The notes beneath the pieces were generated by a model that was given only the letters and a program-made list of their open reading frames with translations, was not told the DNA's origin and searched no databases. This document shows positions 1 to 46,451 of a DNA stretch of 64,000 nt, one piece after another. The stretch's first letter is position 1. Each line of letters begins with the position of its first letter. The stretch covers positions 59,693,622 to 59,757,621 of the forward strand of contig NC_057718.1 in the NCBI RefSeq assembly GCF_004010195.1. Direction: 5' to 3'. The DNA is from Chiloscyllium plagiosum (lineage: Eukaryota). The position numbers and the translations under genes were made by a program.

Positions 1-195
1 ACAGCTCTATACCAGGCGATGACTTTGCAGTATGATGCTGTCACAAAGTCTACATTTGCCTGCGTTAGGTATGGTGTAAGTGAAGTTTGTTGGAGTGGTT
101 GTTAGAGTTCAGTTCAGAATTGGTAGCAAAATCATAAATGTATTCTGTATATTCTGATTTATAATTTACTTATAATTTTATAAGTAAATGCGCTT

Positions 196-436
196 AAAAA
201 TGTGTTGCTGGAAAAGTGCAGCAGGTCAGGCAGCATCAAAGGAACAGGAGAATCGATGTTTCGGGCATAAGCCCTTCTTCAGGAACACATTTTTAAGCGC
301 ATTTACTCGCAATATATAGTGAAATCATAAGTCAGAATATACAGAATACATTTATGATTTTGCTACCAATTCCTTGAAAAAGCTCTCCTCCTCCCTCTCT
401 CCAGCATCTGCAGTCCTCACTTTCTCCTAGTTGATT
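196..436. mobile_element. Short Penelope-like (PLE) insertion: antisense arm (196-285), inverted copy of upstream flank (284-372), sense 3' tail (~400-436)
   Basis: Arm and tail sequences recur at 4012-4111, 34385-34460, 37813-37963 and 46452-46570. 117-206 is repeated inverted at 284-372. Degenerate TSD AGTAAATGcgCTT (183-195) / AGTAAATGatCTT (440-452). Confidence 0.75.
252..285 (-). ncRNA. Minimal hammerhead ribozyme motif (PLE-associated)
   Basis: Minus strand reads CTGAAGA-a-GGGC-ttat-GCCC-GAAA-ca-TC: hammerhead core boxes around a 4-bp stem II. Loop III CG has decayed to CA. Confidence 0.7.
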
Positions 437-1020
437 GAGAGTAAATGATCTTTCTCAATTCACAATTAGTGAAAAATATATATTTTCTGATGAAAAACTT
501 TCTTCTCTTTTACTCTGTGTTGTTTCAGCAGTTCTTTCTTTTTCATGTATTTGTCTTTTATCACTGTCCCAATGGTTTGCATACAACAGAATTCCATCAC
601 TTTTATGAGTATTTAGAGATGAAATACATTATTTTTCCTGATATTACAATTCTTCAAATACACAAATAAACCAAATCCAATCACTAATGTATAATTTATG
701 GCTAAACATAAAAAGGACATGACCATCTGTGTAGTGTTTTGCTGTGGACTCGTAATGTACTCATTGCAGTGATCCACAGTGCCCAAGAGAGGGCATTAGT
801 TTGTCTTCTGACAATAATGCATAAACATTAAAGACTGAGAAGCAACTGAAATTTAAACTTGAAATTCTTTCTCATTATCAAAAGCTATTTCAGTGTTGAC
901 CTCTCTGATTATAAACCTGCAAATATCTCTAATATTATACTGATAGTTATTTTTAATAGTTCATGATTATGAGAACACATTATTTTTAATGATTATTGGG
1001 TTTTGGTTGATAGTGTTAAT

Positions 1021-1600
1021 AGAGTCATAGCATTGTACAGCACAGAAACAGACCCTTTGGTCCAAATCGTCCATGCCAACCAGATATCCAAAATTAATCC
1101 AGTTCCATTTGCCAGCATTTGACCCATATCCCTCCCGAACCTTTCTTATTCATATACACACCCAGATGCCTTTTAAATGTTGTAATTGTACCAGCCTCCA
1201 CCACTTCCTCTGGCAGCTCATTCCATACACCATTTTGCATGAAAATGTTGCCCTTAGGTCCCTTTTAAATCTTTCCCCTCTCACCTTAAACATATGCCCA
1301 CTAGTTTTGGACTTCCCCACCCTGGGGAAACTATTTTGGCAATTCACCCTATCCATGCCCCTCATGATTTTATACATCACTGTAAGGTCACAACTCAGTT
1401 TCTGATGCCCCAAGGAATATTGCCCCAGCCTATTCAGCCTCTCCCCATAGCTCAAACCCTCCTTTTCTGAACGCTTTCAAGTTTAACAAAATTTTTCCAA
1501 TAACAGGGAGTCAGAATTGCATGCAATATTCCAAAAATGGCCTAACCAATATCCTGAACAGTCACAACATGATCTCCCAACTCCTACACTCAATGCACCG
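1021..1600 (-). mobile_element. 5'-truncated CR1-type LINE, 3' end
   Basis: ORF 1150-1455 resembles the CR1 ORF2 C-terminus (SYGERLNRLG...VRGERFKRDLR). 3' UTR and CTATGACTCT tail match copies ending at 5787, 33795 and 47570. Confidence 0.9.
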
Positions 1601-2217
1601 ATCAATACAGGCAATTTGCTTTATAATTTCATTTTGAGAGAAAGATTATGGGTAACTCAAGATGGAGAATGGGAAAAACGTGTGGCTGTAAGAGTTGCTC
1701 CTTCATTGAGGCATTTTAGGTGCTAGTAATTACTGCTTATGAGCTGTTGCATTGTTTTGGAAATTGGGGAGGAAAAGATCAAAACAACAGCACGGTATAA
1801 AGGAAGAAGAGAGACAAAGGCAGTGACCACATGGTCAGTGAATCAAATGAGAAAGAGACCTAACTGCTGCCTGACACAGCAGTGAATCTGCACAGCTACT
1901 GCCTTTGCTGTTTAATTTCAAGAATCTCTGGACATCTGGACATCTCGGAAAAATTAACAAACAACAAAATTCACAGCTGACCATGGAGGAACCTGTGTGG
2001 GAGAGCAGTTATGTGCATAGTTTTTAAGTGTAACCTTGCTGTAAATCTACAGTAGTGAGTACAATGGGTTTTTTTATGATTTTATGTTTGATTGAGATCA
2101 GTTTCTTGATTAAATTTTAAAAATATAAACCATAGGTACTAAGTTAGCCTGGAGCAGTGTTTTCTGAGCAGTACGTCTATACTATTTTCTGGGTTTGTAG
2201 ATTGTTAAGGCGCAAAG

Positions 2218-2929: not shown

Positions 2930-5693
2930 ATTTATTTCAGTACTTGAGGCCTAACAGGGACGGCAGATGAACTCTGAGTATGGTTAGGAACATGGGATTG
3001 GGATATTATAGCAGTTACAGAGAGATGGCCTAGGGATGGACAGAAATGGCAGCTTAATGTTCCAGGATACAAATGCTATAGGAAGGATAGAAAGGGTGGC
3101 AAGAGAGGAGAGGAATGATGTTTTTAATAAAGGATAACATTACAGCTGTACTCAGGGAGGATATTCTTGGGAATATGTCCAGGGATATTATCTGGGTAGA
3201 ACTAAGAAATAAGAAAGAGATGATCACCATTTGTGGGATTGTACTATCATCCCCACAATAGTTAGAGGGAAATTGAGAAATAAATAGGGTGGTAATGGTA
3301 GGGGATTTTACCTTTCCAAACATAGACTGGGACTGCCACGGTGTTCAGGGTTTAGATGGAGAGGAATTTGTTAAGTGTGTACAAGAAAAAATTCCAATTC
3401 AGGATATGGATGTATCTACTGGAGACGTTGCAAAACTTAACCTACTTTTGGGAAATAAGGCAGAACAAGTGACTGAGGTGTCAGTGGGGGAACACTGTGT
3501 GGCCAGCAACTATAATTCAATTCGTTTTAAAACAGTGATGGAAAAGGATAGACCAGATCTAAAAGTTAAAGTCTGAAATGGGAGGAGGGTCAATTTTGAT
3601 GGATTTAGGCAACAACTTCCAAAACTTGATTGGAGGTGAACCTTCGCAGGTAAAGAGACAGCTAGAAAATGGGAAACCTTCAAAAATGAGATAACAAGAG
3701 TCCAGAGACAGTACGTTCCTGCTAGGGTGAAAGTCAAGGTTGGTAGGTGTAGGGAATGCTGGATGACTAGAGAAATTGAGGTTTTGGTTAAGAAAAAGAA
3801 ACATGCATATGTCAGATATAGACAGCAGAGATCAAGTGAATCCTCAGAAAAGTATAAAGAGCATAATATTGGGGAAATCAGGAGGGCAAAAAGGGGACGT
3901 GAGATAGCTTTGGCAAATTGGGTTAAGGAGAATCCAAAGGGATTTTATAAGGACAAAAGGGTAACTAGGGAGAGAATAGAGCCCCTCAAAGATCAGCAAG
4001 GCAGCCTATATAGGCCAAAGTGAGGACTGCAGATGCCGGAAACTGAAACGTCGATTTTCCTGCTCCTCCGATGCTGCCTGACCTGCTGTGCTTTTCCAGC
4101 ACCACTCTAATCAAGGCAGCCTATATGTAGAGCTGCAGGAGACTGGACAGATATTAAACAAGTATTTTTCACCAGTGTTTACTGTGGAGAAAGGCATGGA
4201 GAATATAGAATGTGGGGAAATAGATGGTGACATCTTGAAAAATATCCATATTACAGAGGAGGAAGTGCTGGGTGTCTTAAAATGCATAAAGGTGGATAAA
4301 ACCCTGGGACTTGATCAGGTGTACCCTGGAACTCTGTGGGAAGCTCCAGAAGTGATTGCTGGGACCTTTACCATATTTGTACCATAAGTAGTCACAGGTG
4401 AGATGCCGGAAGAATGGATGTTGGCTAATGTGGTGCCACTATTTAAGAAAGGTGGCAAGGAAAAGCCAGGGAACAATAGACCAGTGAGCCTGACATCAGT
4501 GGTGGGCAAGTTGTTGGAGGAAATCCTGAGGGACAGAATGTACATGTGTTTGGAAAGACAAGGACTGATTAGGGATAGTCAGCATGGCTGTGTGCATGAG
4601 AAATCATGTCTCATTAACTTGATTATTTTGAAGAAGTTAAAAAGAGGATTGATGAAGGCAGAGCAGTGGACATGATCTGTATGGACTTCAGTAAGGTTAC
4701 TCATGATAGACTGGTTAGCAAAATTAGGTCACATGGAATACATTTGGATACAGAACTGGCTCCAAGGTAGAAAACAGAGGGTGCTTTTCAGACTGGAGGC
4801 CTGTGGCCAGTGAAGTGCCACAAGGATCAATGCTGGATCCATTGCTTTTTGTCATTTATATAAATGATTTGAATGTGAACATTGGAGGTATTGTTAGTAA
4901 TTTTGCAGATTACGCCAGAATTGGAGATGTACTGGACAGTGAAGAAGGTTACCTCTGAGTATAACGGGATCTTGATGAGTTGGGACAATGGGCCAAGGAA
5001 TGGTGAATAGAATTTAATTTAGATAAATGTTTGTGGCTGCATTTTGGAAAGGCAAATCAGAAAAGGACTTATACACTTAATGGTAGGTGTTGCTGAACAA
5101 AGAGACCTTGGAGTGCAGGTTCATAGTTCCTTCAAAGTGGAGTCTCAGGTAGATAAGAGTTTGGTATGCTTTCCTTTATTGGTCAGAGTATTGAGTACAT
5201 TGAGAGGGCAGCTGTACAGGACGACAGTTAGGTCAGTATTAGAATATTGCATGCAATTCTGGTCTCCTGCCTACAGGAAGGATGTTGTTAAACTTCAAAG
5301 GGTTCAGAAAAAATTTACAAGGATGTTGCCAGGGTTGGAGGGTTTGAGCTACAGGAAGAAGCTGAATAGGCTCGGGCTGTTTTCTCTGGAGCATTGGTGG
5401 CTGAAGGATGACTTTGTAGAAGTTTATAAAGTCATGAGGGACATGGATAGGGTCTTTTCCCTAGGGTGGGGAAATCCAAAACTAGGGGGCATAGGTTTAG
5501 GCTGAGAGGAGAGAGATTTAAAAGGGACTTAAGGGGCAAACGTTTCACACAAAGGGTTGTGAGTGTATGGAGTGAGCTGCCAGAGGAAGTGGTGGAGGCT
5601 GGTAAAATTACAACATTTCAAAGACATCTGGATGGGTATATGAATAGGAAGAGTTTAGAGGGATATGGGCCAAGTGCTGGCAAATGGAATTAA
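2930..5693 (+). pseudogene. CR1 ORF2 remnant (APE endonuclease plus reverse transcriptase)
   Basis: Motifs VGDFTFPNIDW, ANVVPLFKKG..PGNNRPVSLTSVVGK, QRDLGVQV, LEYCMQFWSP and QRVVSVWSELP across shifted frames. Confidence 0.9.
4012..4111. mobile_element. 100-bp PLE-derived insertion inside CR1 ORF2
   Basis: Perfect 15-bp TSD CAAGGCAGCCTATAT (3997-4011, 4112-4126). Inverted tail followed by a sense arm that starts at the GAAACGTC of the hammerhead. Confidence 0.85.
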
Positions 5694-6065
5694 ATTAATT
5701 TTGGATGTTATTAATGCGATCGGCATGGGCGAGTTGGACCGAAGGGTCTGTTTCCGTGCTGTACATCTGTATGATTCTATGACTCTAAATAGCAAGGAAA
5801 AGTCATAGACCTAGTTTTTGTTTTTAAACATAGTTCTAATTATTTTTTTCTGTTAATTAATTAGTTGTAAAATATGTAATATAAATTATATTACATCAGC
5901 AGTTGTTCACAGTGTTGCATTATGTCTCATGATCAGTGTGTCAGTACACCTTTAAGAGGCATGTTCATGGCATCATTACTGATTGAAAACATGTGACCTG
6001 AGAATATAAAGGTCTCATATTCCATCTTAAGCTGGGATTTAGTGAAGTATGATGTGATACTAGAA

Positions 6066-6122: not shown

Positions 6123-7609
6123 TCATGTATAACAGCATTAGTCTTGTCACATCATTTAAAATACCCTACTGGAGGCAAACTCACATCAGCAAGACAAACA
6201 GTTTGGGGCATTTTCTTTCTTTTCATTTGAAGTTTTCTGTTTATCTCTCCTGTGCTTAAAGCAGCAGCTCACATTAAAATACAGCTCTAAAAGCATTAAT
6301 TAGGAGCGCTTACATTATGGATTAGGAGTAGGAGTTATGCAATTTAGCTTAACCCTACATAAAATTCTAGTAGATGTTGATGGAAGCTATTTTGAATGGG
6401 AAACCATGACCAGTATTTCATTCCCCAACCTTAAGATGAAGATTTATTTATACCATAAGCTATGAATAATCAAACCGGGTTATGTCCCAATTAGTCATTT
6501 ACTAACTGAACAATTGATAAGGCGATGATGCTGTGTTCACCCCACATACTCACTATTTGTTAGGGTGACACCAAACAAACTCATTTTAGTCATAACCCTT
6601 GGACACAGCAATTGATGAGACTGTCATCCCATTAGTGTAGGTTGAATTCAAAAGAAGCTGGCAGAGTTAAAGTGAACATATGGATACACTATACCAGCTA
6701 ATCCCTGGGTTTTTAAAAAAAAATTGCAATGTATTTAAAGTACTGTATATATTTATAGCAGCACGTTAACAAGCAGTGACTCGAAGTATGTTTTGGAATT
6801 TCTTTGACATTAATTAGGGAATAAAGAAATAATAATTGTAGAACATCGTCTGCAATTTAATTTAACAACATTGTACATGTGGAAACAAAATGTAACACTG
6901 AATAATACATATAATTAAACTTACACTTATTAGTAAACACATTAAGACCACACTAAACAGGACATATATTTATCTTTCTTTTAAAGCAATATCCTCCGAG
7001 TAACCTAATTTGATAACCAGCTGAGCATCAAGCAAAACTCAGCCCATATACTAAGTAAAACAATTTGTTGTTAGTTGAACCCTGCATCTTTTGATTTAGT
7101 GTATTCCTTATTGTAACTTCTCTGTTGATAAATGCTAATAATTAAATCTATCAAGAACACTGTGTGAATGACCAGGAGTATAGAGATGTAACTTTGGTGC
7201 AATGCAAGGAGTATTAATTTAGTTTTAAGAGTGATACAAACAACTTTGGATTCCTAATGAATAATATGTACATCTTTATGATATGGCTACAGATTTGATA
7301 GTATAGATTCATTGAACTGTAACCATTCAAATTTAAATTTTAGCAAGCCAAAGCTACTTAGGCTATAAAGTGAAGATTTCTAAAATTGCTTCAAGCATTT
7401 ACTCAGTGGTTATCAACTTTTACTATTGTATTAAAATAATTCTATTTCTGATTACATGACAATGAAGTGCTTTCTCAGAAAGCATTCTAGCTTGTATTCC
7501 AGTTTTACAGTCCTTCACAATTGAAAATAAACCTTGCATAAAGATCTTAAATGCTATACATTTTATGGATGTTCAGACAAACCTGATTTACCTTTTCATC
7601 TTAAATACA

Positions 7610-8833
7610 TGGGCCTCAAAATTCAGCTTTGTAATTTAGAACTGATGTTTGAGAATCAGGAGTCTATCAAACTAGCATACTCCCAGCCTCTTCCACTGTG
7701 TCTATATTAATGCCGATGTTGGGGAGAAAGCTTTGGATGTTTCGTGTGTGCACCAGAAAAATTGAAAGTGGGCAGTGAATCAGCCAGTCTCTCATACTAA
7801 TTTAAGGCAGTTTTGAAATCACCGACTACTCAAATCCAAAGAATGTCATTTTCCAATCATCATGTTCAGTGTCTTCATTTTTGAATGGGTAGATGTGCAG
7901 TCTTTCGGCTGTCATGAAAAAGATGGTGGCTACTTGAAGATAAGTGATATCCCCCCCAAATCATACTTATGGCTCGTGACAGTTCTGAAAAAGGACTCAA
8001 AATATTAATTTCTGTTTCCATAGGTGCTGCCAGACCTGCTGAATTTCTGTTTATGTTTCATGACTCCCTCCACCACATGACCTTGCAAGATCAACACACC
8101 TGCAATAAGAACCATGCTGCCCACAGGAAACTGTGAAGCAGAACAATGGCATTCTCAAACAATGGATCAAACCAGATGGAATAGATGTAAAAAAACTATC
8201 TGAAGCATCTTGCCAAATTGTTGGTGGTCTGCTGCACAACCTCATTATGATGACCCAAACTTTGTCATTGAACTTACAGAGTTGAACGTCAGAGGAAGAG
8301 GAGGCAGTCAGAAAGGATCAGAGAACCGTTCACTCGGGACAAACTGCCTGTGAGTATCGACACACGCTTCAGTTTCCTTGGGCCACTATTCCCAGCACCA
8401 CAATTGCTCCACAATTCTGCACCTTTCAAGCCTTTTTTTCTATACCACATCTGAATAATATGAATAATTACATTTATACTTCTTAACCAAAACCTTGAAT
8501 TAAAAGTCATCAATGAAAAACCATTTTATGGTAAGTTAACACAATAAGACATACAATAATAAATACAGAAATGAACTATTTCTCCTTTTCCATCCTCTTT
8601 TTGTCTGCTTCGGAGGTATCTTTGCTTGTTTCAGCATGATACATGCTATACATATAAGCAGCTGTTGACACTATAATGCACACTGAAGTGCACACAGTAC
8701 CAGAATTTGAGCATAAGAAAGCAAGCATCAGATCAACTTACAATGCTTTTTCCTCTGCATCAGTTCTCATCTTTCTTTTTGGAATTGCTGAGGTTGACCT
8801 AGTGACAATTCTTGAATGTCAGAAAATGTGAAT
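7610..8833. mobile_element. Old PIF/Harbinger-like transposon remnant (probably continues 11646-~12030)
   Basis: 8090-8255 resembles the HARBI1-type DDE C-terminus (NHAAHR..VKQNNGILKQ...IVGGLLHNLIM, compare HA.TR..VEQTIGILK...CC.LHN). Heavily decayed. Confidence 0.5.
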
Positions 8834-8845
8834 TTAGAATGAGAG

Positions 8846-9144
8846 TTAAAAATCACACAACACCAGGTTATAGTCCAACAGGTTTAATTGGAAGCACACT
8901 AGCTTTCAGAGCGACACTCCTTCATCAGGTGATTGTGGAGGGCTCGATTGTAACACAGAATTTATAGCAAAAATTTGCAGTGTGATGTAACTGAAATTAT
9001 ACATTGAAGAATTGATTGTCTGTTAAGCCTTTCATCTGTTAGAATACAGTGATAGTTTCACTTCTTTCACGTGTAAATCACAAAACCCTTTTTTTAAAGT
9101 TGCATTCTCGGGTTAGCTGTTAACAATGGTAATAGCTAGACAAT
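8846..9144 (-). mobile_element. PLE pseudo-LTR, left inverted arm (runs into the gap)
   Basis: Reverse complement of 11292-11591 with few mismatches. Contains a hammerhead motif. Confidence 0.85.
8897..8931 (-). ncRNA. Minimal hammerhead ribozyme motif
   Basis: CAC-CTGATGA-a-GGAG-tgtcg-CTCT-GAAA-GC-TA-GTG: intact core, stem I CAC/GTG, palindromic AGCT in place of stem III. Confidence 0.8.
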
Positions 9145-9356
9145 NNNNNNNNNNNNNNNNNNNNNNNNNNNNNNNNNNNNNNNNNNNNNNNNNNNNNNNN
9201 NNNNNNNNNNNNNNNNNNNNNNNNNNNNNNNNNNNNNNNNNNNNNNNNNNNNNNNNNNNNNNNNNNNNNNNNNNNNNNNNNNNNNNNNNNNNNNNNNNNN
9301 NNNNNNNNNNNNNNNNNNNNNNNNNNNNNNNNNNNNNNNNNNNNNNNNNNNNNNNN
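9145..9356. other. Assembly gap (N run)
   Basis: Run of N. Confidence 1.
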
Positions 9357-11221
9357 TCAGTTTTAAACAAATACCTCACTTCTCATACATTCGAAAAATG
9401 GCAAGCACTTGTTACAGTTGGTCTCTCAAGGCCAGAAAAACTTGCACTCACATATGCTACAACAACAGCAGGAAGTGCCAAATAAAGTCAATGGGCTGGG
9501 CAGCAATTGTGGAAAGGCAACCAGAGTTAAAGCCTTGTGTCCAATATGACTCTGATATAGTCACAACTTTATTTATTAGCCACATCTGACTGACCATTTT
9601 TGAGTTCTTCACCTTGACGAAATGCATAGTTTCTGAAAGCCACGTCGTAGTCCTTGAAAGACTATCCATTGCTTATTTACAGTCATGCTTTAAGTGTGTT
9701 TTTCCAATTCACATCAATAAATTGTACTTCTTGACTTCATAATTTCCCTTAATCCCCTAAATTTTAAAACCCTCAGTTCATATTTAAATACCTTATTTTC
9801 AAACATTCAAATGCAATTCTATCATATTGTGGTTACTTATCCTCAACATTTTTTACAGCAAGTTTATTCATTAGTCATTTTACATTATTCAACAATAAAT
9901 TTTAAATAACCTATGTTCTGGAAACTTTCTTTGGAATACCAACCTATCTCATTCCTGTATCGTATCGACACCAAAGATACTAAGATGAAATTTGTCTGTG
10001 CATGCAGCCTTTGTTTTTTCCAAACTAGGTTAGCTGAACTGAAATGAGAAGAATAAACATATGAAGCTTGGTGTTAAGCTAATGAAAAGAAAGATCACAG
10101 GATTCAATGTGTCTGAAAGAATGTTTGTGTTTAATTAAGTTGTGTAACTCAGCCATATTGGTCTCACTGTCATAGCACACCTAAAAATACTGGAATCTTA
10201 TTCAAAATTAAACGGAATAAATTAAGTGTAATGTGGACTGTTTATCAATCAACAGGGTGCATTGGCCATATAATTGTGCTGTGTAAAAATCATACACTTG
10301 ATGAGTAAACGAAGATTGCAACAGAGTGAGCAGATAGTGGATAGCAGATTTGTGACGTTTGCCACTGGTCAAACTGATCATTTGTTGGTGACTGGACAGT
10401 ATCAGAGTTTGAATGCATAGTTTCTTTGTATGGAAAAACAGTATAAGAAAGCTTGCCTCAGAGCATATTTGGCTAGTTCAGAGGCTGGAGAGTAGGATGC
10501 AGCAGACTGATGACACATTTCAGTTTGAACCTCAGGGAACAAGTTCACGGAAACCTGTTTCCTTGTGATTGTAAGCATTAATTAGTGATGACATTTTGCA
10601 GTATTTTGTAGAATCATTGATTTAATAAAGAATAATGCAAATATTCCAATGTTAGAACTGCCTTGGGTTATGGGTGAGCAAAGGGAAGAACCAGGGAAAG
10701 TAGGAATAAATGCCTGTGGTGCCAATGCTTCTCGGTGGTAGCAGGCATATCCTTAAATAAAATATTTCAGCTCTTTCTGTCTCAGTCAATGCAGCAAGAG
10801 TCAGCACGGATTTGGTGATTGAAATTAATTATGAGTTAACTTGGATTCTTCCTGGAAAAATGGTGTGTTTATCACTTAAGAGGTGCTGTTTGTGATCAAC
10901 AAGTAATTTCCTCCGAGTTTACAATCATGAAATCTCCAGTGTTCCCTGTAAAGCTCCACTTAATAAAAGGTTTATGTAAGTCGTTGAGCCATAAATGTTA
11001 CATGAGTAATGATGTATGCAATAATTGCATGCAAGGGGAATGTTGGGAATTTACTAAGTTTAGGCATTTGCTATGTTCTAGGATATGTTATATATATTCA
11101 GCGTTGTGTTTACGATTGTGTGTCATGTTGGGTAGACTTCAATTTGTGATATCACAACTGGTCCACTACAATTGCCTCATCTCACTAGTGATGCCTCATC
11201 CACACAGGATAGTTATCTCGC

Positions 11222-11633
11222 TTTTTAGATTAGAATCAATCTAAACATCAGGTCATAGACAGAGAACACAGGGGGCTAACACCTTCAACATATTGTCTAG
11301 CTATCACCATTGTTAACAGCTAACCAGAGAATGCAACTTTAAAAAACAGGGTTTTGTGATTTACACATGAAAGAAGTGAAACTATCATTGTATTCTTACA
11401 GATGAAAGGCTTAACAGACAATCAATTCTTCAATGTATAATTTCAGTTACATCACACTGCAAATTTTTGCTATAAATTCTGTGTTACGATCGAGCCCTCC
11501 ACAATCACCTGATGAAGGAGTGTCGCTCCAAAAGCTAGTGTGCTTCCAATTAAACCTGTTGGACTATAACCTGGTGTTGTGTGATTTTTAACTTTGTACA
11601 CCCCAGTCCAACACCGGCATCTCCGAATCATGA
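11222..11633 (+). mobile_element. PLE pseudo-LTR, right arm with 3' tail
   Basis: Same family as 44645-44908 and 55970-56582. Ends CGGCATCTCCGAATCATGA, as at 44891-44909. Followed by TTAGAATGAGAG (11634-11645), identical to 8834-8845. Confidence 0.85.
11506..11540 (+). ncRNA. Minimal hammerhead motif with catalytic G12 mutated
   Basis: CAC-CTGATGA-a-GGAG-tgtcg-CTCC-aAAA-GC-TA-GTG. Confidence 0.7.
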
Positions 11634-14244
11634 TTAGAATGAGAGGGTTGTGATAAAGGAAGAAGGGAGGATTGGAAAACCAGGAAGCACATGGTCACAC
11701 AACATACAACTTACACATCATGCCAGAAAGCTGATTTAGGGTGAAGGGGAGTTTGAGAAGATGCATAAAGCAAAATAATATTGTAATCTTAAATGTTTTA
11801 AGCTGGGCTGGATGCAAACGTCTATGCTATAGTTATCCCTGCTTCTTAGTCCCTTCTTGCAAAAATCATAAATTATTGAGTGGAATTGCCTCTTTGAACA
11901 CAGATGTGCCAAGTGTGACCCGCCTCATTTGCCCATGTGAGGATGTTGGGGGCCAGGTTCAGTGATGGGACTTCTGGATTTGGGCTTCCAACGCCATTTT
12001 TACTGCGCAAAAAGTCAGGCCTGAGTATTCCTGTTCTGTGGATCCTCAGCCCAGAGTTTTTAAAAATGTTTAACTGATATCACAGGTCTTTCCGAATTAC
12101 TATAACAATATTCTCTCAGTTCTGCATTGGAGGTCCAGCTTAGATTATGCATTCAAGACTTTGGAGTGGATGTGAATCATAGTCATCTGACTCAAATATG
12201 CAGTTTTATCCCAGGTCATGTTCTCAAACATCTCGTAATTAGCTGGAATTAGAGCAGAGATTGTTCAGGTAGTCTTTCCCTCTCCCTACCTACTTGTCTA
12301 ATACTTCACCAGGATATCTTAATTAGAGTCAAGAGCTTTTCTGATCTGAATTAGTTTCATGTAGATAGTTACTGGCAATGTTAAAATGATGCTGGTCAGA
12401 AAATGTAAAATGTGTGGACTCCAAAGCACAAATAACTTGGATGATAAACATTTTCTAATCAAATTATTTGTGTATTTGTTGACATTCTAGACTTTATTAT
12501 AAAACCCAACTTTTAAAAAATCCATTTATGATGGATTGACATATTCTTCATCTTTAGAACTTAAACGAATCATCATGATAATTTTATTTTCAACTTTAAG
12601 TGAGAATTTATCCACTCGCATTTTAAATCCTTATGGCTCAGAATTGATTAAATGTAAGTCATAATAAGAATATGATAGCAATTAGCAATTAAACCTCTGA
12701 ACAATCACAAAATATATTTGTCAGCTGTCACAATAACAACACTTGTATCACATAACAGAAACAACCATAAGCTTACAATTTCTGATACTGTACAGGAGTG
12801 AATGTTATAACTTGGCAAATGCATGGAATCATGAGACATTTTCATACCTGTTTCTTTGCTATTACATATTTGAGCATCTATTGAACACAGTGTAACTTTG
12901 TAATCAAATATGGCATTTATTTTTGTTGTTATTATGTTCCTGCACTTATTCCATGAAGAGAAATAATTGACAACATTTCAGATGGATTAGCCATAATTTT
13001 CTAAACTTCCTACCAAGAAAATGGGGATTTGGAGACATTTGGCTATGCCCTAATCATGCGAGTTGCATTGCACTGTAAAGCTGATGGTGCCAGTTTTCCC
13101 CTGAGATACGTTCTTGAAATGCATTCCCTGTAACTATTTAGCCAGTGAGATTGCCTATTGCAAAGTTAATCTAATTAGGCCATCAATTGAGGTGGGTTTT
13201 CTAAGTGATGACCTTTGGAAAGGAATTGAGGACTCCACCTCCATATCTACAAAGTGTGGTAACTATGAGATGTGATATGCAGGCTGAGAAATTGGATAGT
13301 ACAAGGACCCAATATGTACGTAAGCGTACCACATTTATTAAGAAATTGCTACACAAATGAAGGCACAGACAAATATAAAAGAAAAATTAAGTTATTCAAA
13401 TGATAGTTCTGCCCTGGCGCTATGAGATAGGATATATTGTGAAGCAGTTCAACTAAGTCAGAACTCCAATTCCCTATTCACCAAGAATCCTGCATTCCTT
13501 ACTTTGCCTTTTTCCAAATATCACTATCGCATTGTCCTTTTTCTCTATACACATTAGCCTTGCCCTCATTTGAAGACAACGTTAAATATAACACCAAATG
13601 TTAACCAATGTTTATCAAATAGCTTCTCATTCTTCACAGTTAAAAATAATATCATTCACTGTCATGTATTCCCTTTGTTCCTGCCTTGATCTGACCTGGT
13701 TCCCATGTGGTACTGCGCTGGCATTGTGATGTGAGCTTTGCCTTCATCAGAGTATTTATACCTGATGCAGCAATGCTTATTTTAGCTCCTGTAACATAAG
13801 AATAAAATGTGGAATTGAAAGATTCAACAGACCATTATAACAGTTTTTGATATTTGGGTATACATTTGAGTCCCAGATACTTAAGTGTCTAGGCTAATAT
13901 GCTTCCATTTGATTAAAAAACTCCATGTTTTTTCACCAACATGTCATGTTTGAGATAGTACTAGTAAAGTGGAATCTAAGCCCTTTATACCCTCAAACCA
14001 CATGCTATGATACAGTGATGATATCATGAACTTTTCTCCAAGAACTATATCATGCAAACTGTGAGACAGAGCACAACAGTTATAATTGAGGAGATACAAT
14101 GCTGCTGAGCTGCCATTGAAACTAGGACATGGGGAATGATTTCAGCAACACTATGTCAAGACCTCCTGTATACAGTATCATTTGAACACAGTCTGTAGCA
14201 TTTTGGAACAGTTACCTGGCAGCAGACAAGGGCTGGTAGGGAAA

Positions 14245-33885: not shown

Positions 33886-33961
33886 TAATTTTTAAAAATC
33901 TTTCTGAAGAATTAGACTTACTGTGAGTAAAATAGGCCCTGAAACAAAATTGAGGCCTGCC

Positions 33962-34465: not shown

Positions 34466-35212
34466 TTAATCAAAAACATCCCTTTGTTCTCCGAGGACAC
34501 TATCGTCTTTCAGCCTTCCTCAGAGCAAGTCAGCATTGACCAACCACTAACATTAACTCAGCTACTACATCAGCCCGTTCAGGACTTCACTTTGGAAATC
34601 AGGGACACCTACGACTTGCACACTTCTGCTGGGTTGCTTTGCATATAGGAACATTCATGTGTTTCATACATCTACACAGAATACAATTTATAGCGTTAGC
34701 TTAATTCCTTCACACTCACTCAATTTGAGCTTACTTGGAGGCTGCCAGCCTCTGTGGCATGCATTGGCTTTTAGTGTAAAAGGAGAGCTCACAGCTCATT
34801 ATGGCTCAGAGTACTGGACCAGTTGTTGTATGGCACTGTGCTATGTCATGTTCAGGCATGCACTGCATGCTGGTAATGTACATGCTAACACATTACATGA
34901 GCTTCAACCACCCATGAATGTCAAAGTGGGGTTGAGGAGGACTACAGTCAGTCCAGGGTACCACCCAGTCAGTCAAGAGCTGGTCCAATTACACACTGGG
35001 GGTGGTCATGGTCTGTCCTGCAAGTTCAGATACAACAAGTCCAGGGATTACAGGTACATTAATCAGAATGTTTCGGAGGTATCAGTTCAGGGGGTGGATG
35101 GAGGGGGAATATATTTTTCCTGCCATGTGACTAAGCGAGGGACTGAGTTTGATGGTAGTGCATAGAATAGCAACATGACAGCAGAAATGGTAAGGTAATC
35201 CCAGTGAGTTAA

Positions 35213-35306
35213 AATTCAACCACCTGATGAAGAAACAGCACTTTAAAGGCTAGTGCTTCCAAATAAACCTGTTGGTCCAAAACCCGATGTTATGTGATTT
35301 TTTTAA
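35213..35306 (+). mobile_element. 94-bp PLE 3' fragment with decayed hammerhead
   Basis: Matches 11500-11592. 11-bp TSD CAGTGAGTTAA (35202-35212, 35307-35317). Confidence 0.75.
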
Positions 35307-36414
35307 CAGTGAGTTAATAGGAAGCTCAGAGGGCAGGAATATAGAATAAAATAACTTGGGAGAATGAGGTGGGGCAGAGCCAATGAGTGGATATGTTGCA
35401 TGCAATGGTAAGAGTTGTAGTCTGTGAGCCTTGGTGAGTGATGTGTGCAGCAGTAGAGTTAAAGTGAATTGTTGCCTTATAAGTCTGAAGTAACAGGGAG
35501 AAAATGGTGCAGATATCATTGAAGATCCTTTAAAGATCATTGACCTTCTTCATGCACTGCTGTGCATTGTTACACCAGACACACTACACTGACTTGGGTC
35601 ATTAACTCCATCTAGCCTGACTGACTCCAGTAGCATGGACCTCCTTTGGTGGTCAGCAAGAAAAAGCATTGTTCTCCTTTGCATTACCCCATCTGTCAAC
35701 ACCTCCATATAGCTTTACATCTAAGCCAAACCACAGTTATTATCATCAAGAATAAACATATATAGAAACTACTTCGAATTTACGGTCTGTTGTGAAATTT
35801 CTTTTGTAATTTTGAGTATTGATTGAATCAGTGCTTAAAAGGTTAACCAAAATTTTCCATAATGGCTCTACATATGCTAATATGCTTCCAAAATTATGTG
35901 AGTATGACATATGCATACCTTTGATGCTGGCCACACTGGATGCCATTTTGTTGAGAATGTTACCACAAACACAGGGAGCATGCACCAAAATTAAATAGAA
36001 TAAGTAGTTCTGATATCAATCAATGTGCAATACTCAATTTTGGACATCAATGCTCCAGCTAAGTTCCTGTCTCAGTCTTGCACAGTTGAATAGTGGGAAG
36101 GAACCCCACTAGCATTTAGTCCTGACCTCAAAGATTCTACTTAAACCACTGGCTTCCTGACATGGATACACTTTATCACCTTAGCTGCAACATGGTTGGG
36201 AGACTGAACAGAGGGGATACGAAGGAAGACAAGTTGATGAAAGAGGGAGGAGGAGAAGGACCTTCAGCATGGGGTGTTATTTGTCCAGAATCTTCAGGGA
36301 GAAATCCTTTGTTCATCACCCTCAGTGAGAACACTTTATCACTATCACTTCATTGAGGTGGCTGTTTTTGAACTCAAGCACCTGATGCAGCCTTAGGGCA
36401 GGACAAAAATAGGA

Positions 36415-36905: not shown

Positions 36906-37812
36906 TTTGCTTTGTGGGATCTGCATTTTAAATCTGATCATACTACAAATGGAAAAGATTCAAATCTTTTAGTTGTTAAAAGGAGTGTGATTATTCAGAG
37001 TGTACCTTGCAGATGAATTCATTCTGTGGTATTTTACTTGTGTCTTACCGACCATGCAATGCCTGTTGTATGCTACAGAAGCTCACTCTCATGATGGTCC
37101 AGTGGTGGAAGTAGAGTCCTTGAATATATTCAAGCCAAATTCTTGATAAGGAAAGAGTGCAAGGTTATTGGGGGGGAGGGGAGAATGTGGAGTAATCACA
37201 TCAGCTGTGATTGTATTGAAGGTTTGCATGGCTGTGTTGTTTATTCCTGCTCTAATTTGTATCATTGTATGTACCCGTGCACCTGCCATGAACTTATGAG
37301 CATAATGGGAGGTGTCAAGTGTGTCAACCATTTCGGAAGCTATTAAAGGCTTCATCCAGTAGCATTCTGATCAAATGGGTAGGGAGCAAGTATCCAACAA
37401 TCAGCCCAGCAGATTTAATCAGAAGGCTGCTGGTCACCAACAGAGGAAATGTGCGCCTTTTGCTCATTTGAGATTCTCCACCCCTTACCCATGCTCACCC
37501 TTGTCCGAACCTGTTACCCTGTTCCCAGAGAGATCTCAGACACAGTTGAATGTCTAGGCTCATTGGTGATTGCCACCTCTTGACCTCGGTACAGTACAAG
37601 CAATAGCCACCTTTCTTGTTTGTTGCAGTGGGAATGGGGAGCCTCTTGGACTGTCTCATGGAGGCAGAGGGTCCTCACCTGAAAAATTAAAGAGAGTCAA
37701 ACTGACTAGGTGGAGGAGGCAGTTTCATCTCAAAATTGATGCTGGGTTAGGGGTGCTTGCCCTCAGCATAACTTCCATCCTGTTTTCTTCTCTCTGCTCC
37801 TGACGTGCATAG

Positions 37813-37963
37813 AGGTAAAAACAATGACTGCAGATGCTGGAAACCAGATTCTGGATCAGTGGTGCTGGATTCCTGATGAAGGGCTTTTGCCCGAAACGTC
37901 GATTTTGCCTGTCCTCGGATGCTGCCTGAATTGCTGTGCTCTTCCAGCACCACTGATCCAGAA
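37813..37963. mobile_element. 151-bp PLE-derived element: inverted arm with tail, intact hammerhead, sense arm
   Basis: 15-bp TSD TCCTGACGTGCATAG (37798-37812, 37964-37978). Perfect 23-bp inverted repeat 37847-37869 / 37943-37965. Confidence 0.9.
37869..37904 (+). ncRNA. Minimal hammerhead ribozyme motif
   Basis: CTGATGA-a-GGGC-tttt-GCCC-GAAA-CG-TC: intact core, GUC cleavage triplet, palindromic ACGT. Confidence 0.8.
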
Positions 37964-39449
37964 TCCTGACGTGCATAGCAATGTCTTGGCTGCAATAGTA
38001 AAATAAAACTCACCAGAATACAATATTTCCAAACCACTTTATATAACTCAAACCATCCAATAGTTTAGATGATTTTCAATTAATCATTCTTGTCTATTCC
38101 TTTCATGCTTGATTTCTCAGTACCATGACTACACTGGTGCTCCTATACAGTGTTACCTCAGGGGCTGTAGCCTGCCTCGTGAAAGACTGCCGACTATCAG
38201 TAGAGGAGACTTGCAGGATAACCTTAGGCAATTCTGATCCTAGGAGGTCAGGTTTTGGACCGCACCACTTTGGTCACATGGGTAGGAGTAGTTTTAGCTG
38301 ATTGACCGACACACATTGCTGGAGTTGTACAGGTGAGGGGGTGAATGGTGTCATTCTGAGAGTGTTGTTCACCATGCAGCCACTGTAAATCCCACATGGT
38401 GACTCCTCAGCAATGTAACCTTTGTACCACCTGCAGCTTGTAAATTGGAAGAGTGTCTGGCATCTGGGGAAAGTGGGATGTGAGAAGAAGCATCAGGTAC
38501 GATCATATTCTCACCTTTAACCATTTCATTCTCTGCTCATGATCCCAGTCCCATCTGCCGCAGTAACAGCAAGCACCATCTCCTCCATGGTCAGGACATT
38601 CAGCAGTGTCCGGCTGCCTCAGTTTGGAGCTTTGTGTTTTAGTTTTGTGCCAAGAGGGAGTGGGTTGCAAACTGCTTGGTTAATGTGGCTGACCTGATTG
38701 AATAACTGGCAGCATGTGTAAGCTGTGAAATGTGGGTGGTGAGGCTTGGAGCAGAAGTAAGTGGGAGAGGTTCATGTTAAGCTTCAAATGTGAAGTCTGA
38801 GTCACGAATGATGGAACATTTGGTAGCTCAGTGTTGAGGCTCCAATACAATGTGTAGTGTGTAAGGCTAGTGGATCAGTTGATCAGAAGTAGCAATTAAA
38901 AATTGATTCACTGATCTTGATCATACATGTGAGGCCATTGAATATCTTGCCAAATCCAGATTCTTGTGAATTGCAGTGACCTGATCACCATCATCTTCTG
39001 TCAGGATCAGCAACAAATACTTGCAAACATCATTCATCCCAAGAAAGAGTATTTTTAAACAATGGTGATCTAACTGCTTATACAATGTATGCCCAGATAA
39101 TTGTCTCGTCTCCCTTTTACTTTCCACCTCCTGTAACAAGGCTGCCAATCTGTCAAGCCATAGTCACTCACCTTGAATATTAGACACTTCCCCAAGTACT
39201 TGCAGCATCTACTCCAGCCACTGAATGTCAAGGGATAATGCTTGGATTTTCTCTCATTGGAGATGGTCATTGCCTGGCACTTGTTTCATTAATGTGATTT
39301 GTCACTTAACAACTCAAGCCTGGATTAGCTGCTTCAGTTTCTGAGGAAGAGCAAATTCTTGTTGCTGAGGTCAGTCAAATGCTACCTCGATGTCAAGGGA
39401 CCATGGCCAAATTGATAAAGGAGCTGAGTGACCCACGCAGAACCCAACT

Positions 39450-40250
39450 CCATGCATCATTCCTTGACATTTCAGTGGCATAAGTGTTGCTGAATCCAGC
39501 CTATCAACACCCTGGAGCTGTTGTTGATTATAAACTGAAAAGGACCAGTCATATAAACAGTGTGGATTCAAGAGAAGGTCAGAGGCTTGGAATTATGTGG
39601 TTGAAATGCCAATCGTCTGACTCTCTAAAGCCTATCCAGGCTTAAGTCAGGAGTGTGATGAAATACCTTCCACTTGCTTCAGTGAGAGCAAGTCCAACAA
39701 CACTCAAGAGGCTTGAGTCTATTCAGGACAAAGTAACTCCTTGTTTGGCACTTCATCCATTACTTTAAACATTCACAGCTTCCAACACTGGCACACAGTG
39801 ATAGTAGTGTATACAATTTATAAGACGCATTCCATCAATTTACCAAGTCTGCTTTGACAGCACATTCCAAAACCAGTGATCTTCCCACTGAAAATGGAAA
39901 GGGCGATGGATACATTAGAATAGGATGCCTGCAAGTTTCCTTCTGAGCCACTCAGCATCCTGACTTGTACTATAGCACCGAGAAAGGGGACAAAACATCT
40001 GCAAATCACCTTCCCAGTTTGGTGAACATACCCATAACTATGGCAACCAGCACCCAAGCTACAAATCTTTACACAAACCTTGATCGCTGTTCCTTGTAGA
40101 TAGGTCAATAGTTTTGAACTTATTTCCTACCTCAACACCTCATAGACTGCACTGATTCAAGAAGCTTCTCACAACCATCACAAGAGCAAGTAGGGAAAGG
40201 CAATAAATATAGATCATGCCAGCAATGCACATAGCCCATGAAAGAACCAG
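39450..40250 (+). mobile_element. Degenerate L2/CR1-group LINE 3' part, interrupted by a PLE tail fragment (~39980-40082)
   Basis: VRSVMKYLPLAS..ASPTTLKRLESIQDK-like translation. Tail GGGCAATAAAT...CCCATGAAAGAA is shared with the SINE at 40395-40747. 40015-40082 matches 15665-15730. Confidence 0.65.
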
Positions 40251-43150: not shown

Positions 43151-43876
43151 AATGGGGTCCATGAGAGTAGGTATCTCGAGGTGGGCAGTATTTGTTGTCC
43201 TTCCCTAGTTTCCTTTGAACTGATTGGTTCTCCAAGATGGTTATGAAGGCAGTTAAGAGTCAATCACATTTCTGAGTATCTGGAACCAGATTTCCATCCC
43301 TAAATGACATTATAATTTTTATGAGTTGTCAATAATTACAATTGGAAAAGCTTTTAAATTCCCCCAAATTTTCATCTAATTTAAATTTCACTATCTGCCA
43401 TGTAGAGGGGCGATCTCATGCCCTGAAGGTTATTTGAGGTTTAGGGAGAGGGACAGAGTTAGGATTACTCGTCCAGTGACATTATCACTATGTCTTGGGC
43501 TGCTCTATTGGCGATATTATTGGAGGTCTGGAGGCACATGTATATCAGCTGGGTAAGAACAGCGGATTTCCTTCCCTTGACAAATATGGGAATCAATTTT
43601 TGTTCGGTATAGGTGAGAATTTGTTGTTGAGGCCTCAATCAGATCAGCCAGGATCTTTTTGAATAACGGATACTTTGAGGAGCCAAGTGGTTGACTCCAG
43701 CTCCTAATTTTCATGTTTGTACATTTGTATTTAGGTCAAATAAGAGGTTTCTCTCAGCTTAATCTTTAACTATGTCAAACCTATCATGGAGTTTGTACAT
43801 TCTTATACCTTATTTTACGTTCCTATGTATGATATTTTGAACATATTTATGCTCAATCTAAGTCACCATTCTTCTG

Positions 43877-44908
43877 TTAAGTCCCTCATCTGTTAGAATG
43901 ACCATGATAGTTTCACTTCTTTCATATTTAAATCACAAAACTTGTTTTTAAAAGTTACATTCTCAGGTTAACTGTAACAATTGGTGTCAGCCCAGAGAAG
44001 ATGTTGAAGGTGTTAGCCCCCTGTGTTCTGCTGTCTGTGCCATAATGTTCAGGCTGATTCTAATGTTAAAATGAGTTAACAGAGTCTTACATGGATTCAT
44101 GCAGTTTTTGAGCAAAGTACAATGTAATTCTGCAAGTACAAATTCACCTCACAAACTTATATGTGTTTGTGGGTTTGTGTGTGTCTGGGGTGGGGTGGGG
44201 GGTTGTGAGTGTCAGTGAGAGCGATTGTATATGTGTGTGTGAGTGTAAAGGGGTCTACATCTGTGAGAGGGTGCATGTGTGAGTGTGGGAGTGTGTGTGT
44301 GTCTGTAGGAGTGTGTGTGATTGTCTGTGTGCGTGTCCATGTAAAGGAGTGCCTGTGTGTGTGTGTGTGTAGGAGCGTCTGTATGTGTGTATAGTGCAAT
44401 AGTAGTCACCTGTAGTGTGACATGAACCAAGGACCCGGTTGAAGCCCTCCCTATGGGTACCGAGGACCAAGGTCACTCCTAGACACACACACACACACAC
44501 ACACACACGTACCATCTCACAGACGTAGACCCCTTTACATTCACATACACATACACTCTCTCTCACAGACACTCATAACCCCCCACGCCAAACACACACA
44601 CACACTCCTGCAGACACACACACTCCCACATTCCCCCATGATTAGGTTAGAATCAGTCTAAACATTTTGGCACAGACAACAGAACACAGGAGGCCAACAC
44701 CTTCAACATCTTCTCTGGGCTAACACTAATTGTTACAGTTAACCTGGGAATGTAACTTTTATAAAAACATTTTGTGATTTACATATGAAAGAAGTGAAAC
44801 TATCATGGTCATTCGAAAAGATGAGAGACTTAACAAACAATCAAGGTATTTTTCAATGTATAACTTCAGTTACATCACAATGTAAACTACCGGCATCTCC
44901 AAATCATG
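43877..44908. mobile_element. PLE (Neptune-like, CA-rich 3' region) with long inverted arms
   Basis: 12-bp TSD ACCATTCTTCTG (43865-43876, 44909-44920). 43877-44065 is the reverse complement of 44645-44833. Minus strand at 44405-44463 encodes GTHREGFNRVLG, a GIY-YIG C-terminal TH..GLN.D.G-like end. Confidence 0.85.
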
Positions 44909-45099
44909 ACCATTCTTCTGATGTGTGAATTCTTTGTCAAATTCACTCAGCGATTTTTGAGCTGCTTCCTTCAATTTCAATGTACCTTCCAGTTTTATAA
45001 ATTTTGATCACAGCATTGAGTCTGTAATCCAGGTCATTTATGTAATTCAGAGACACCAGTAACCTCAATGCCAAACACTGAACATTTTACCCATACTTT

Positions 45100-45285
45100 C
45101 TAAAAGCAAGTTACTGCAGATGCTGGAACCTGTACTGAAGGCAAAAAATGCTGGAAATCACATCAGGTCAGGCAGCATCCATGGAGAGAGAGCAACATCA
45201 GAGCTCCGATGAAGCATCATCTTGACTCGGAAATGTTAGCTTGCTCTGCTGCCTGACCCATTGTGATTTCCAGCATTGTTTGTTT
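45100..45285. mobile_element. Older short PLE-derived element with inverted arms
   Basis: AATGCTGGAAATCACA..GGTCAGGCAGCA is inverted against TGCTGCCTGACC..TGTGATTTCCAGCATT. Decayed hammerhead at 45205-45240. Degenerate TSD TTTTACC(C)ATA.TTTC. Confidence 0.65.
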
Positions 45286-46451
45286 TTACCATATTTTCCC
45301 CTACCTTTATATAACTTCAACTTCTAAGCAGTAATTTTTGTTTTCTAGTCTTCATAATTTTTTTTAAAAAATTATGTTCAAGGTTTAACTTCAATTCCTA
45401 TAGTTTTGAGTTTAGCTAATAATATTTCAGGTGGAACTTTGTCACATATCTTCAGGGAGTTGTGATGCATCCTATCATAATGATTTCTACAATCACTTCC
45501 TCAAAAGCATGTGCTTGTTTTGTTACTATTTTAGAATTGACCTATTTCTAATCTGCTGATACCTTCCCAGTGCTCAGTGATGCCTGCATAATAGTTGTCA
45601 GAGCCTCACAAATCCCTAGCTTAGATTCTCTCAGAACTCTGATTTATTAGATGTTAATCTACTGTGGCCATGTAGCAGTGATAAATAATATGTGCCACTC
45701 CTTGAGTAATGTCTAATTATCTTCTCAAACTTTCTATCAAAAAAGATAGGCTTGTTGCTCCTGATGACCTTTTCCTGTTGCTATTATTTCTCATATTCTT
45801 ATAGACAGAATATGTAGAAGGTTGTGGTTGAATAGTTCAGTGTAGTACTGATTAAAATGCACTAATCACACAGGTTTGTTCACTGCTTCTGAGTTACAGG
45901 CTTTCACTGTAACTTGGAGATCTTCTTAGTTCATAATCAGGCCTCACATCAGGTTAGACATCTTGTAAAAAGACCACATTTTTCCAATGACTCAACACCA
46001 AGTCAGTTTATCCATGACCCCTGATCTTATATAGATTTGCATTGACTCTTGGTAAGCAAGTTTCATTTCTAAAATTCTCTCCCTTGTTTTCAAATCCCTT
46101 CATGGCCTGATCCATTGATGTCTCTAAGCTGCGCAGATGTGAGGCTGCATATCAGTCCAGAAGACACTGTATAGGCCAAGCCCAAATTAGCCCCTACAAG
46201 TCACATAGAACACGTAGTTACACAAAAGGGGCCTGTGCACTTAACCCACTTCCCCATGCAAAACAAGATGATAGGTTAAGTTGGCTACAAGAAGCAAGCA
46301 AGGTTTGGGTATTCTGTGGCAAGTGACTTGCAAAAGCTTACCCATCATCTAAAAAATACAAGAATCAAATTGTGTAAAAAATATGGAAGGTATGTTAGAA
46401 TTATTCCCCCTTATCTCTCTAACTTCTTCCAGCCTTGCAACCATCAAAGAT

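Follow-up and report, generated by a model that had tools for sequence, protein, structure and literature searches.

How Penelope-like elements (PLEs) come to be inserted as two arms in opposite orientation within a target site duplication (TSD), and how further DNA comes to lie between the arms, are the questions raised by a repeat-rich stretch of eukaryotic DNA from Chiloscyllium plagiosum (64,000 nucleotides of contig NC_057718.1, positions 59,693,622 to 59,757,621; the whole stretch is called the window, and positions below are its own). The origin of inverted, tailed PLE insertions is an acknowledged open question (PMC8557442, PMC11167929). The account that we regard as probable, with appreciable doubt, is that both ends of the cut target are primed on PLE RNA and that the resulting cDNAs are joined end to end, sometimes by way of templated insertions, which appear as filler between the arms.

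A census of the window made by blastn with nine arm queries yielded 15 PLE-like loci, of which eight are two-armed and seven are single arms with no inverted partner, so that the architecture is common but not universal. The two-armed sites, named here by position, belong to a short family A (196, 4012, 14245, 37813 and 45100), a family B (8846 and 43877) and a family C (15026). A preliminary description of this DNA had listed two arms at each of these places, and two PLE-like arms were indeed found at all eight. In every case the left arm is antisense and the right arm sense, and the 3' ends of the element face the flanks (one-sided binomial p = 0.004). Perfect TSDs of 12-15 bp had also been claimed; they abut the arms at five of the eight sites (4012, 15 bp; 8846, 12 bp; 15026, 14 bp; 37813, 15 bp; 43877, 12 bp), but site 196 has an imperfect TSD matching at 11 of 13 positions (183-195/440-452; 1 in 5000 under its null), and at sites 14245 and 45100 no repeat exceeds chance length (best 5-7 bp). 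The longest repeat among 3000 random boundary pairs was 10 bp, and none reached 11, so the perfect TSDs exceed what chance boundaries provide.

The arms also differ at their outer ends by a one-sided tail, which measures 36 nt at 37813, 38 nt at 15026, 42 nt at 8846 and, by alignment, about 40 nt at 4012. Four public runs were compared with the window over 7600-16300 (contigs only, likeness 90): X1 from organism A, X5 and X11, both labelled organism B, and X18 from organism C. Among the matches listed (24 of 4020), the 3' ends of family B in these contigs pile up at 11594, 11595 and 11597 (219-405 records per row), with unrelated flanks beyond, and a second pile stands at 11633 (24 records in X5), 36-39 nt away; the public contigs thus show that the tail offset is family-wide for family B. 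The proposal that one arm runs about 34-42 nt beyond the other therefore holds at four sites, but it fails at 43877, because the left arm there starts 177 nt inside the usual short end.

The assignment of these repeats to the PLEs differs in kind among the families. Positions 15367-15633 of family C share 84% identity with the final 88 residues of the protein P0002, which has an RVT_1 domain (E 3e-6), and the relative P0006 has a weak GIY-YIG match after RVT_1 (E 0.027, below the cut-off). Judged by this similarity, the family C repeat is the C-terminal end of an open reading frame (ORF) that bears a reverse transcriptase (RT), and the protein relatives of one repeat in the window come from carpet sharks (Chiloscyllium, Hemiscyllium and Rhincodon). 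Families A and B, which have no ORF of testable length, are classed as PLEs by hammerhead cores, tails and TSDs only. A predicted hammerhead core pattern is present in arms of all three families (259-282, 8904-8928, 15069-15098, 15620-15649 and 37873-37896); these five are among 12 matches in the window, across the whole of which 5.6 would be expected by chance. An Rfam scan gave no family at gathering score, and the folding of four arm ends was of ordinary stability (z from -1.96 to 0.05).

The evidence that bears most directly on the number of priming events comes from sites at which the two arms do not overlap. The preliminary description spoke of inverted arm pairs, and the inverted orientation is confirmed at all eight sites, but at 196, 4012 and 14245 the arms share no sequence: they are adjacent, non-overlapping parts of the element in opposite orientation rather than inverted copies. 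At these three sites one arm consists of the tail region alone (31-45 nt), and the other begins beyond the tail. Overlaps of 21 nt, 209 nt and at least 300 nt are found at 37813, 15026 and 8846, respectively. The features of the three sites are as follows.

183 to 195, no strand: site 196, left TSD copy, decayed, 13 bp; right copy at 440-452, 11/13 identical (null 1/5000)
196 to 285, minus strand: site 196, body arm, family A; stops 3 nt before the hammerhead core, at the same 5' edge as the arms at 37870 and 34390
286 to 372, minus strand: site 196, filler, a fold-back of its own left junction and flank; 286-307 is the reverse complement of 183-204 (22/22) and 332-372 that of 117-157 (41/41), with diverged sequence between
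373 to 399, no strand: site 196, 27-nt pyrimidine-rich stretch; best match in the window 19/27
400 to 439, plus strand: site 196, tail arm, family A, with its end placed to within about 9 nt; no sequence in common with the body arm
3997 to 4011, no strand: site 4012, left TSD, 15 bp, perfect; right copy at 4112-4126; the target resembles a long interspersed nuclear element (LINE), which we take to be of CR1 type
4012 to 4043, minus strand: site 4012, tail arm, family A, 32 nt
4044 to 4111, plus strand: site 4012, body arm, family A; joined to the tail arm with neither filler nor overlap; in alignment some 10 nt of the element are missing between the two
14244 to 14345, minus strand: site 14245, body arm, family A-like, decayed; common to organisms B and C; no TSD
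14353 to 14395, plus strand: site 14245, tail arm, decayed

Arms with no common sequence require two priming events, since the folding back of a single cDNA cannot produce them. Priming at both ends of the break also fits the outward polarity at eight of eight sites, the TSDs, and the 36-42 nt offset, which matches the two RT start sites described in PMC11167929. An alternative, proposed for head-to-head PLE repeats in PMC3846280, is self-priming on an antisense template, in which the inverted arm would be the fold-back of one strand and the fillers would be loops or template jumps within the hairpin. Snap-back synthesis is present at site 196, and many contigs contain arm joints at almost mirrored positions (8933-8937/11500-11504), both of which are in keeping with this alternative; however, it does not account for the three sites whose arms share no sequence, and it leaves unexplained the fixed outer offset that two start sites on sense RNA explain (PMC11167929). 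We consider it highly improbable, and the short units with non-overlapping arms speak more for priming of both ends on sense RNA than for self-priming on an antisense template as published. The joints just mentioned are direct antisense-sense arm joints on deep multi-copy contigs of three runs (15 of 1587 among the matches listed; sides of 20-35 letters), and they suggest, as an indication only, that the arms are usually joined at the hammerhead edge with no filler between them. Joints near 11537-11545 were discounted, since the copy in the window has a 2-nt indel that gives rise to spurious loose ends at these positions.

Five of the eight two-armed sites have no real filler, site 196 has a local fold-back, and sites 15026 and 8846 hold copies of distant, single-copy host DNA. 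At site 196 the end of the body arm (271-285) pairs with its start (205-219) at 11 of 15 positions, and this arm stops at the same base as the arms at 37870 and 34390, which indicates an unresected end. The stretch 286-372 is, as its letters read, the product of snap-back synthesis from a finished cDNA end and not foreign cargo; of the filler classes that had been described (none, about 90 bp, about 130 bp and about 1.9 kb), the two longer ones stand, at 135 bp and at least 1855 bp, while that of about 90 bp is the site's own flank. A search of the window for sources of 373-399, 308-333 and 44463-44473 found none. In the left flank of the site, a 26-nt AT-rich palindrome (164-189) lies where the fold-back copy (308-331) departs from it, and one of the two has been rearranged.

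Among the sites of the filler-free class that remain to be listed, 43877 is a departure from the common pattern.

37798 to 37812, no strand: site 37813, left TSD, 15 bp, perfect; right copy at 37964-37978
37813 to 37869, minus strand: site 37813, tail arm, family A; 36-nt tail and 21 nt identical to the partner arm
37870 to 37963, plus strand: site 37813, body arm, family A; hammerhead core at 37873-37896; no filler
43865 to 43876, no strand: site 43877, left TSD, 12 bp, perfect; right copy at 44909-44920
43877 to 44465, minus strand: site 43877, left arm, family B; its start lies 177 nt inward of the usual short end, where 2-4 nt agree with the end of the TSD
44474 to 44908, plus strand: site 43877, right arm, family B, discontinuous; missing are an internal stretch of about 120 nt and one of about 150 nt that contains the hammerhead; the final 20 nt of the tail are retained
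45101 to 45200, minus strand: site 45100, left arm, tailed and decayed, family A-like; no TSD beyond chance
45205 to 45290, plus strand: site 45100, right arm, decayed

Only about 10 nt of no assigned source lie between the arms of 43877. Both of these arms are without a hammerhead, and the right one is made up of several discontinuous sense pieces, which could have arisen either by forward template jumps or by later deletions.

The largest filler is that of site 8846, whose left junction and full length are hidden because the filler starts at the first of the two assembly gaps in the window (9145-9356, 212 N; the second is at 34043-34363), so that its length is at least 1855 bp.

8834 to 8845, no strand: site 8846, left TSD, 12 bp, perfect; right copy at 11634-11645; single copy in the empty allele of organism C
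8846 to 9144, minus strand: site 8846, left arm, family B, short 3' end; ended by the assembly gap
9145 to 9356, no strand: assembly gap, 212 N; covers the junction of left arm and filler
9357 to 11211, no strand: site 8846, filler, 1855 bp or more; host DNA copied from a locus that lies beyond the window
11212 to 11633, plus strand: site 8846, right arm, family B, 422 nt; 42-nt tail

The whole 2.8 kb insert is missing from two relatives. In organism C, X18 record 16 runs through 7600-8833 and continues at the next letter with 11634-12732, which is an empty allele with one copy of the 12-mer; in organism B the insert is likewise missing, since X11 record 10 passes from 8382 to 11634 with no more than 219 letters between. 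As a separate matter, organism B (X11) is about 230 letters shorter than the window over 8383-8833 (219 against 451). The filler itself is present in these relatives in other surroundings: X11 record 11 matches 9367-9686 and has 2597 other letters before it, and X11 record 13 matches 10590-11209 and then has 458 other letters, while blastn of the filler against the 64 kb window gave no donor. In the pieces listed, the divergence of the filler equals that of the flanks (X11, 64/1902 against 122/3863, or 3.4% against 3.2%; X18, 42/874 against 184/4215, or 4.8% against 4.4%), which marks it as ordinary unconstrained host DNA. Summed contig depth in X1 is 13-15 over the filler (bins free of small repeats) against 3-7 in the flanks, a direction that fits a duplication, although contig depth is a poor measure of copy number and the filler in X11 is at about the level of the flanks.

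The gap between the left arm and the filler, together with the fact that no contig among those listed spans the whole insert, leaves some room for the view that the filler is an artefact of assembly, or that two independent insertions merely happen to be neighbours. We find this barely credible, since a perfect 12-bp TSD stands at both ends, organism C has the empty allele and organism B has no room for the insert. Moreover, the joint between filler and right arm lies in continuous sequence, and X1 record 6 reproduces the right arm end, the TSD and 2.4 kb of flank with 0 differences; the raised depth of the filler in X1 also speaks against an artefact, but not its depth in X11.

A reading of the filler as a processed retrocopy or captured exon was rejected, given the lack of coding support, the divergence equal to that of the flanks and the collinearity of the donor in DNA contigs. 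For the 42-residue frame at 9357-9485, no convincing relative turned up in PDB (best E 1.4), in a set of 5.8 billion (none of seven candidates) or in Pfam, and three matches to it among 1.84 billion representatives were repeat proteins summing weak matches and were likewise rejected.

The second filler of distant origin, at site 15026, is short enough for both of its joints to be read.

15012 to 15025, no strand: site 15026, left TSD, 14 bp, perfect; right copy at 15731-15744
15026 to 15234, minus strand: site 15026, left arm, family C, 209 nt, short 3' end
15235 to 15369, no strand: site 15026, filler, 135 bp; copy of host DNA at single-copy-like depth, from outside the window
15370 to 15730, plus strand: site 15026, right arm, family C, 361 nt; end of the RT-bearing ORF; hammerhead core at 15620-15649; 38-nt tail

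The start of the right arm at 15370 is set by loose ends in X1, X5 and X11, and the left arm ends at 15234. X18 record 22 (1284 letters) holds 15232-15376 in mid-contig, with 339 and 800 other letters on its two sides, and comparison of this donor match with the arm ends gives microhomologies with the arms of 3 nt on the left and 7 nt on the right. At 15313 the window reads G, whereas X1, X11 and X18 each contribute a single contig that reads T, a depth like that of single-copy DNA. Blastn of the filler against the window found no donor and a single 19-nt match at chance level. No direct repeat of at least 5 bp is present at the ends of the filler, so that it lacks a TSD of its own such as a later insertion might have brought.

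Both donors bear on the possibility that the fillers were transduced, that is, that a source element elsewhere already had host DNA beside or between its terminal repeats and that a read-through transcript was copied whole. Such an event has been published for Adineta vaga, with a TSD and an empty site (PMC3846280), and the excess of A>G changes with which X5 covers the 8846 filler (see below) is a weak hint of a transcribed donor. However, the donor contigs of relatives depart from the window at the filler ends and show no arm at the three ends that are visible (X11 record 13 and X18 record 22); the X1 and X11 rows at 15313 share the distance to the piece end seen in X18, which suggests a like arrangement in the species of the window itself; the two arms stand inverted and not as direct repeats; and the X1 filler depth, for what contig depth is worth as a measure of copies, is about twice that of the flank and not many-fold. 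A source copy private to the window's lineage is possible, but transduction is on the whole quite improbable.

We infer from these observations two priming events, an order of steps and capture during integration. In the account of two-ended priming, the PLE endonuclease would make a staggered break of 12-15 nt, and both 3' ends would prime reverse transcription on sense PLE RNA, usually with one end starting at a distal site and the other 36-42 nt inside it. The outcome would be a TSD-flanked pair of cDNA arms, only one of them tailed, with the element's 3' ends pointing outward. The free cDNA ends would be joined, mostly directly; sometimes one end may first copy itself and its own flank by snap-back, as at 196, and sometimes one end may copy distant host DNA or RNA by way of 3-7 nt microhomologies, as at 15026 and probably at 8846. 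A filler would be a templated insertion made during sealing, a copy and not a cut-out, and no fixed part of any element; it could be copied by PLE RT or by a host polymerase, from RNA or from DNA. The longer overlapping arms at 37813, 15026 and 8846 would need displacement, tandem RNA or two RNAs. The earlier suggestion that the products are joined directly or through captured DNA is partly borne out by distant capture at 15026 and 8846, with donors in relatives and an empty site at the latter, but not as regards simultaneity in the 1.9 kb case.

A number of findings weigh against this account. Seven of the 15 loci have a single arm, and the tail rule is broken at 43877. Both distal donors are known from contigs of relatives, without a genome location. 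At 8846 the left joint of the filler is inside the N gap, into which X1 record 3 extends by 151 letters, and the right joint has no microhomology, the donor match ending at 11209 and the element starting at 11212. For 15026 no empty allele was seen in the four runs, which give very little coverage of its right flank (next to none over 15748-16300). The arms of 8846 differ at 9 of 300 positions, of which four are CpG-type, and each arm has changes of its own; between the filler and the X1 contigs, which come from the same species as the window, 8 of 1705 positions differ; the Fisher test gives p = 0.0003, which becomes 0.03 without CpG changes and 0.22 when the count is in addition halved for contigs that are mosaics of donor and copy. 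Finally, distal fillers occur in long-armed pairs only, in two of three as against none of five (p = 0.11), a restriction that is also expected if spacers let long palindromes survive.

The last two findings lead to the alternative in which the filler is a later repair patch: a filler-free insertion would break at the centre of its palindrome and host repair would add distant DNA or cDNA, so that the PLE would be a fragile site and spacers would be enriched among the survivors. The divergence at 8846 agrees with this sequence of events, and the same CpG has been lost independently on both arms, but the age gap loses its significance once CpG changes are left out and the contigs are taken to be mosaics, and it is absent at 15026, where an arm-to-arm divergence of 3/209 is compatible with a filler-to-donor divergence of at least 1/145. 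The gap at 8846 may mean that the filler is younger than the arms, that the arms come from two RNAs, or that it is noise. The confinement of distal fillers to long-armed pairs is a further point for a later patch. Microhomology with neither a TSD nor poly(A) is the signature of class 2 templated insertions (PMC5110952) and is found at 15026, but it is equally expected at integration, and yeast breaks with no retroelement give both local fold-backs and distant templated insertions (PMC11724301). On the other hand, the filler of 196 is joined to an unresected arm end, and the arms there form no palindrome; in addition, no filler-free two-armed allele was seen in the four runs of short-read contigs, although inverted arms break contigs and would hide one. 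We therefore consider a later patch unlikely, though it deserves to be kept in view, and capture in the course of two-ended priming remains our preferred account.

The template of the 8846 filler may be either RNA or DNA, and its orientation cannot separate the two because either polarity would be co-directional with one arm. X5, whose identity as RNA is a guess, has donor alleles over 9548-11130 and no coverage of the unique flanks. Of the 72 changes listed in X5, 28 are A>G and 8 are T>C; the three remaining runs together have 81 A>G among 578 (p = 2e-6 for the difference in A>G). This is a weak hint that the donor is transcribed, given that alleles can mimic editing; no RNA record holding the filler is on record. 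X5 is also odd in another respect: it is labelled organism B, yet for the most part its pieces diverge from the window by about 0.5%, as organism A does; one of them, 9548-9910, has 25 differences, and X11, also labelled B, is 3.4% away. Mixed alleles, the label or RNA editing are possible reasons.

Set beside known systems, the basic structure of these sites is familiar. In PLEs that encode an endonuclease (EN+), complex insertions with an inverted 5'-truncated copy, a one-sided tail of 30-40 bp and a TSD are standard (PMC8557442, PMC3846280), and minimal hammerheads occur in their pseudo-long terminal repeats (pLTRs; PMC4209133). The head-to-head arms, the 36-42 nt one-sided tails, the TSDs and the hammerhead cores in the repeats agree with this; the differences are that several units here are only 100-240 bp long, that three have arms sharing no sequence, and that the TSDs are 12-15 bp as compared with 8-10 bp in the rotifer examples in the available text of PMC3846280. 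In the rotifer Adineta vaga, an intron-containing nonribosomal peptide synthetase (NRPS) gene lies between pLTRs with an 8-bp TSD and an empty site (PMC3846280; cited in PMC6431247), and the same source gives a few further cases of unrelated sequence between solo pLTRs with TSDs. The likeness lies in host DNA copied inside PLE termini, with a TSD and an empty allele (here at 8846); however, the NRPS case has direct pLTRs and is read there as a trans-mobilised transcript, whereas here the cargo is at the seam of inverted arms, the donors have no arm at their visible ends, and one case has 3- and 7-nt microhomologies.

Work with the purified protein of the Poseidon PLE of Anolis showed that both target strands are cut and extended and that two adjacent RT start sites bound the tail (PMC11167929), just as we would suppose here; the available text of that source leaves second-strand synthesis and joining open and mentions no fillers. 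LINE-1 insertions in cells include opposite cDNAs joined with extra RNA pieces and locally templated DNA (PMC11702581). Twin priming in that system resembles the present sites in that both break ends are extended by RT, the TSD is kept, the joints have microhomology, and extra RNA or local DNA is included, but the second LINE-1 primer anneals internally by microhomology and the element has a poly(A) end, while in the window the second arm has, in most cases, a fixed start about 40 nt from that of the first, site 43877 being a LINE-1-like exception. The class 2 templated insertions (PMC5110952) and the insertions at yeast breaks (PMC11724301) are similar in that distant or adjacent DNA is copied, with microhomology and with neither a TSD of its own nor poly(A); they need no retroelement, however, whereas the patch here lies exactly between two PLE arms.

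It follows that the inverted structure and the capture of host DNA are both known, and that what is new is the position at the seam, the non-overlapping arms and possibly a high rate, with rate and timing unproven. As to the suggestion that frequent cargo capture is undescribed, capture between PLE terminal repeats with TSDs has been published (PMC3846280), and two cases do not establish a high rate. Capture is real, but the idea that it is a routine by-product rests on two of the eight paired sites (two of the 15 loci), both in long-armed pairs, and a rate cannot be derived from one window. In the literature on PLE structure and capture, as represented mostly by non-subscription main texts without older reviews or supplements, neither a measurement of capture at the seam nor a two-ended PLE model was found. 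A broader proposition is in our judgement doubtful. It holds that shark PLEs integrate by way of a doubly primed intermediate with an open seam, that at least 10% of two-armed insertions capture host sequence there, and that PLE RT switches to unrelated host RNA over stretches of up to kilobases, with no earlier link between element and cargo; given PLE copies in the numbers that contig depths suggest, the elements would then be a main source of dispersed intron-retaining duplications in shark genomes. The two distal fillers, both with donors and one with an empty allele, are cases of vertebrate host DNA duplicated through an insertion seam. If the rate is high and capture simultaneous, PLEs would be a general route to dispersed duplication; if the fillers are later patches, PLE palindromes would be fragile sites.

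The single-armed loci and neighbouring repeats supply some further observations. A lone family B arm of about 90 nt at 35202-35317 begins just ahead of the hammerhead core and has a perfect 11-bp TSD (35202-35212/35307-35317), with 4-5 bases of no assigned source at its left. Single-armed PLE pieces with neither partner nor TSD are found at 46450-46568, where tail and body form one run that adjoins a LINE-like fragment, and at 55972-56583, 39976-40085, 8008-8045 and 31365-31400; a search for TSDs at 34397, 39976, 46450 and 55972 gave none beyond chance. The family A arm at 34390-34469 adjoins the second N gap and begins at the usual hammerhead edge, without stem II, and 34364-34381 is an 18-nt inverted copy of 33968-33985 on the opposite side of that gap. 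A ninth two-armed site, concealed by the gap and filled by a local fold-back, is a possible reading of 33960-34469 from this arrangement of the letters. The inverted LINE-like ends at 1019-1561 and 5200-5780 (RT fragments), which lie about 4 kb apart and are 75-90% alike, are ordinary repeat copies.

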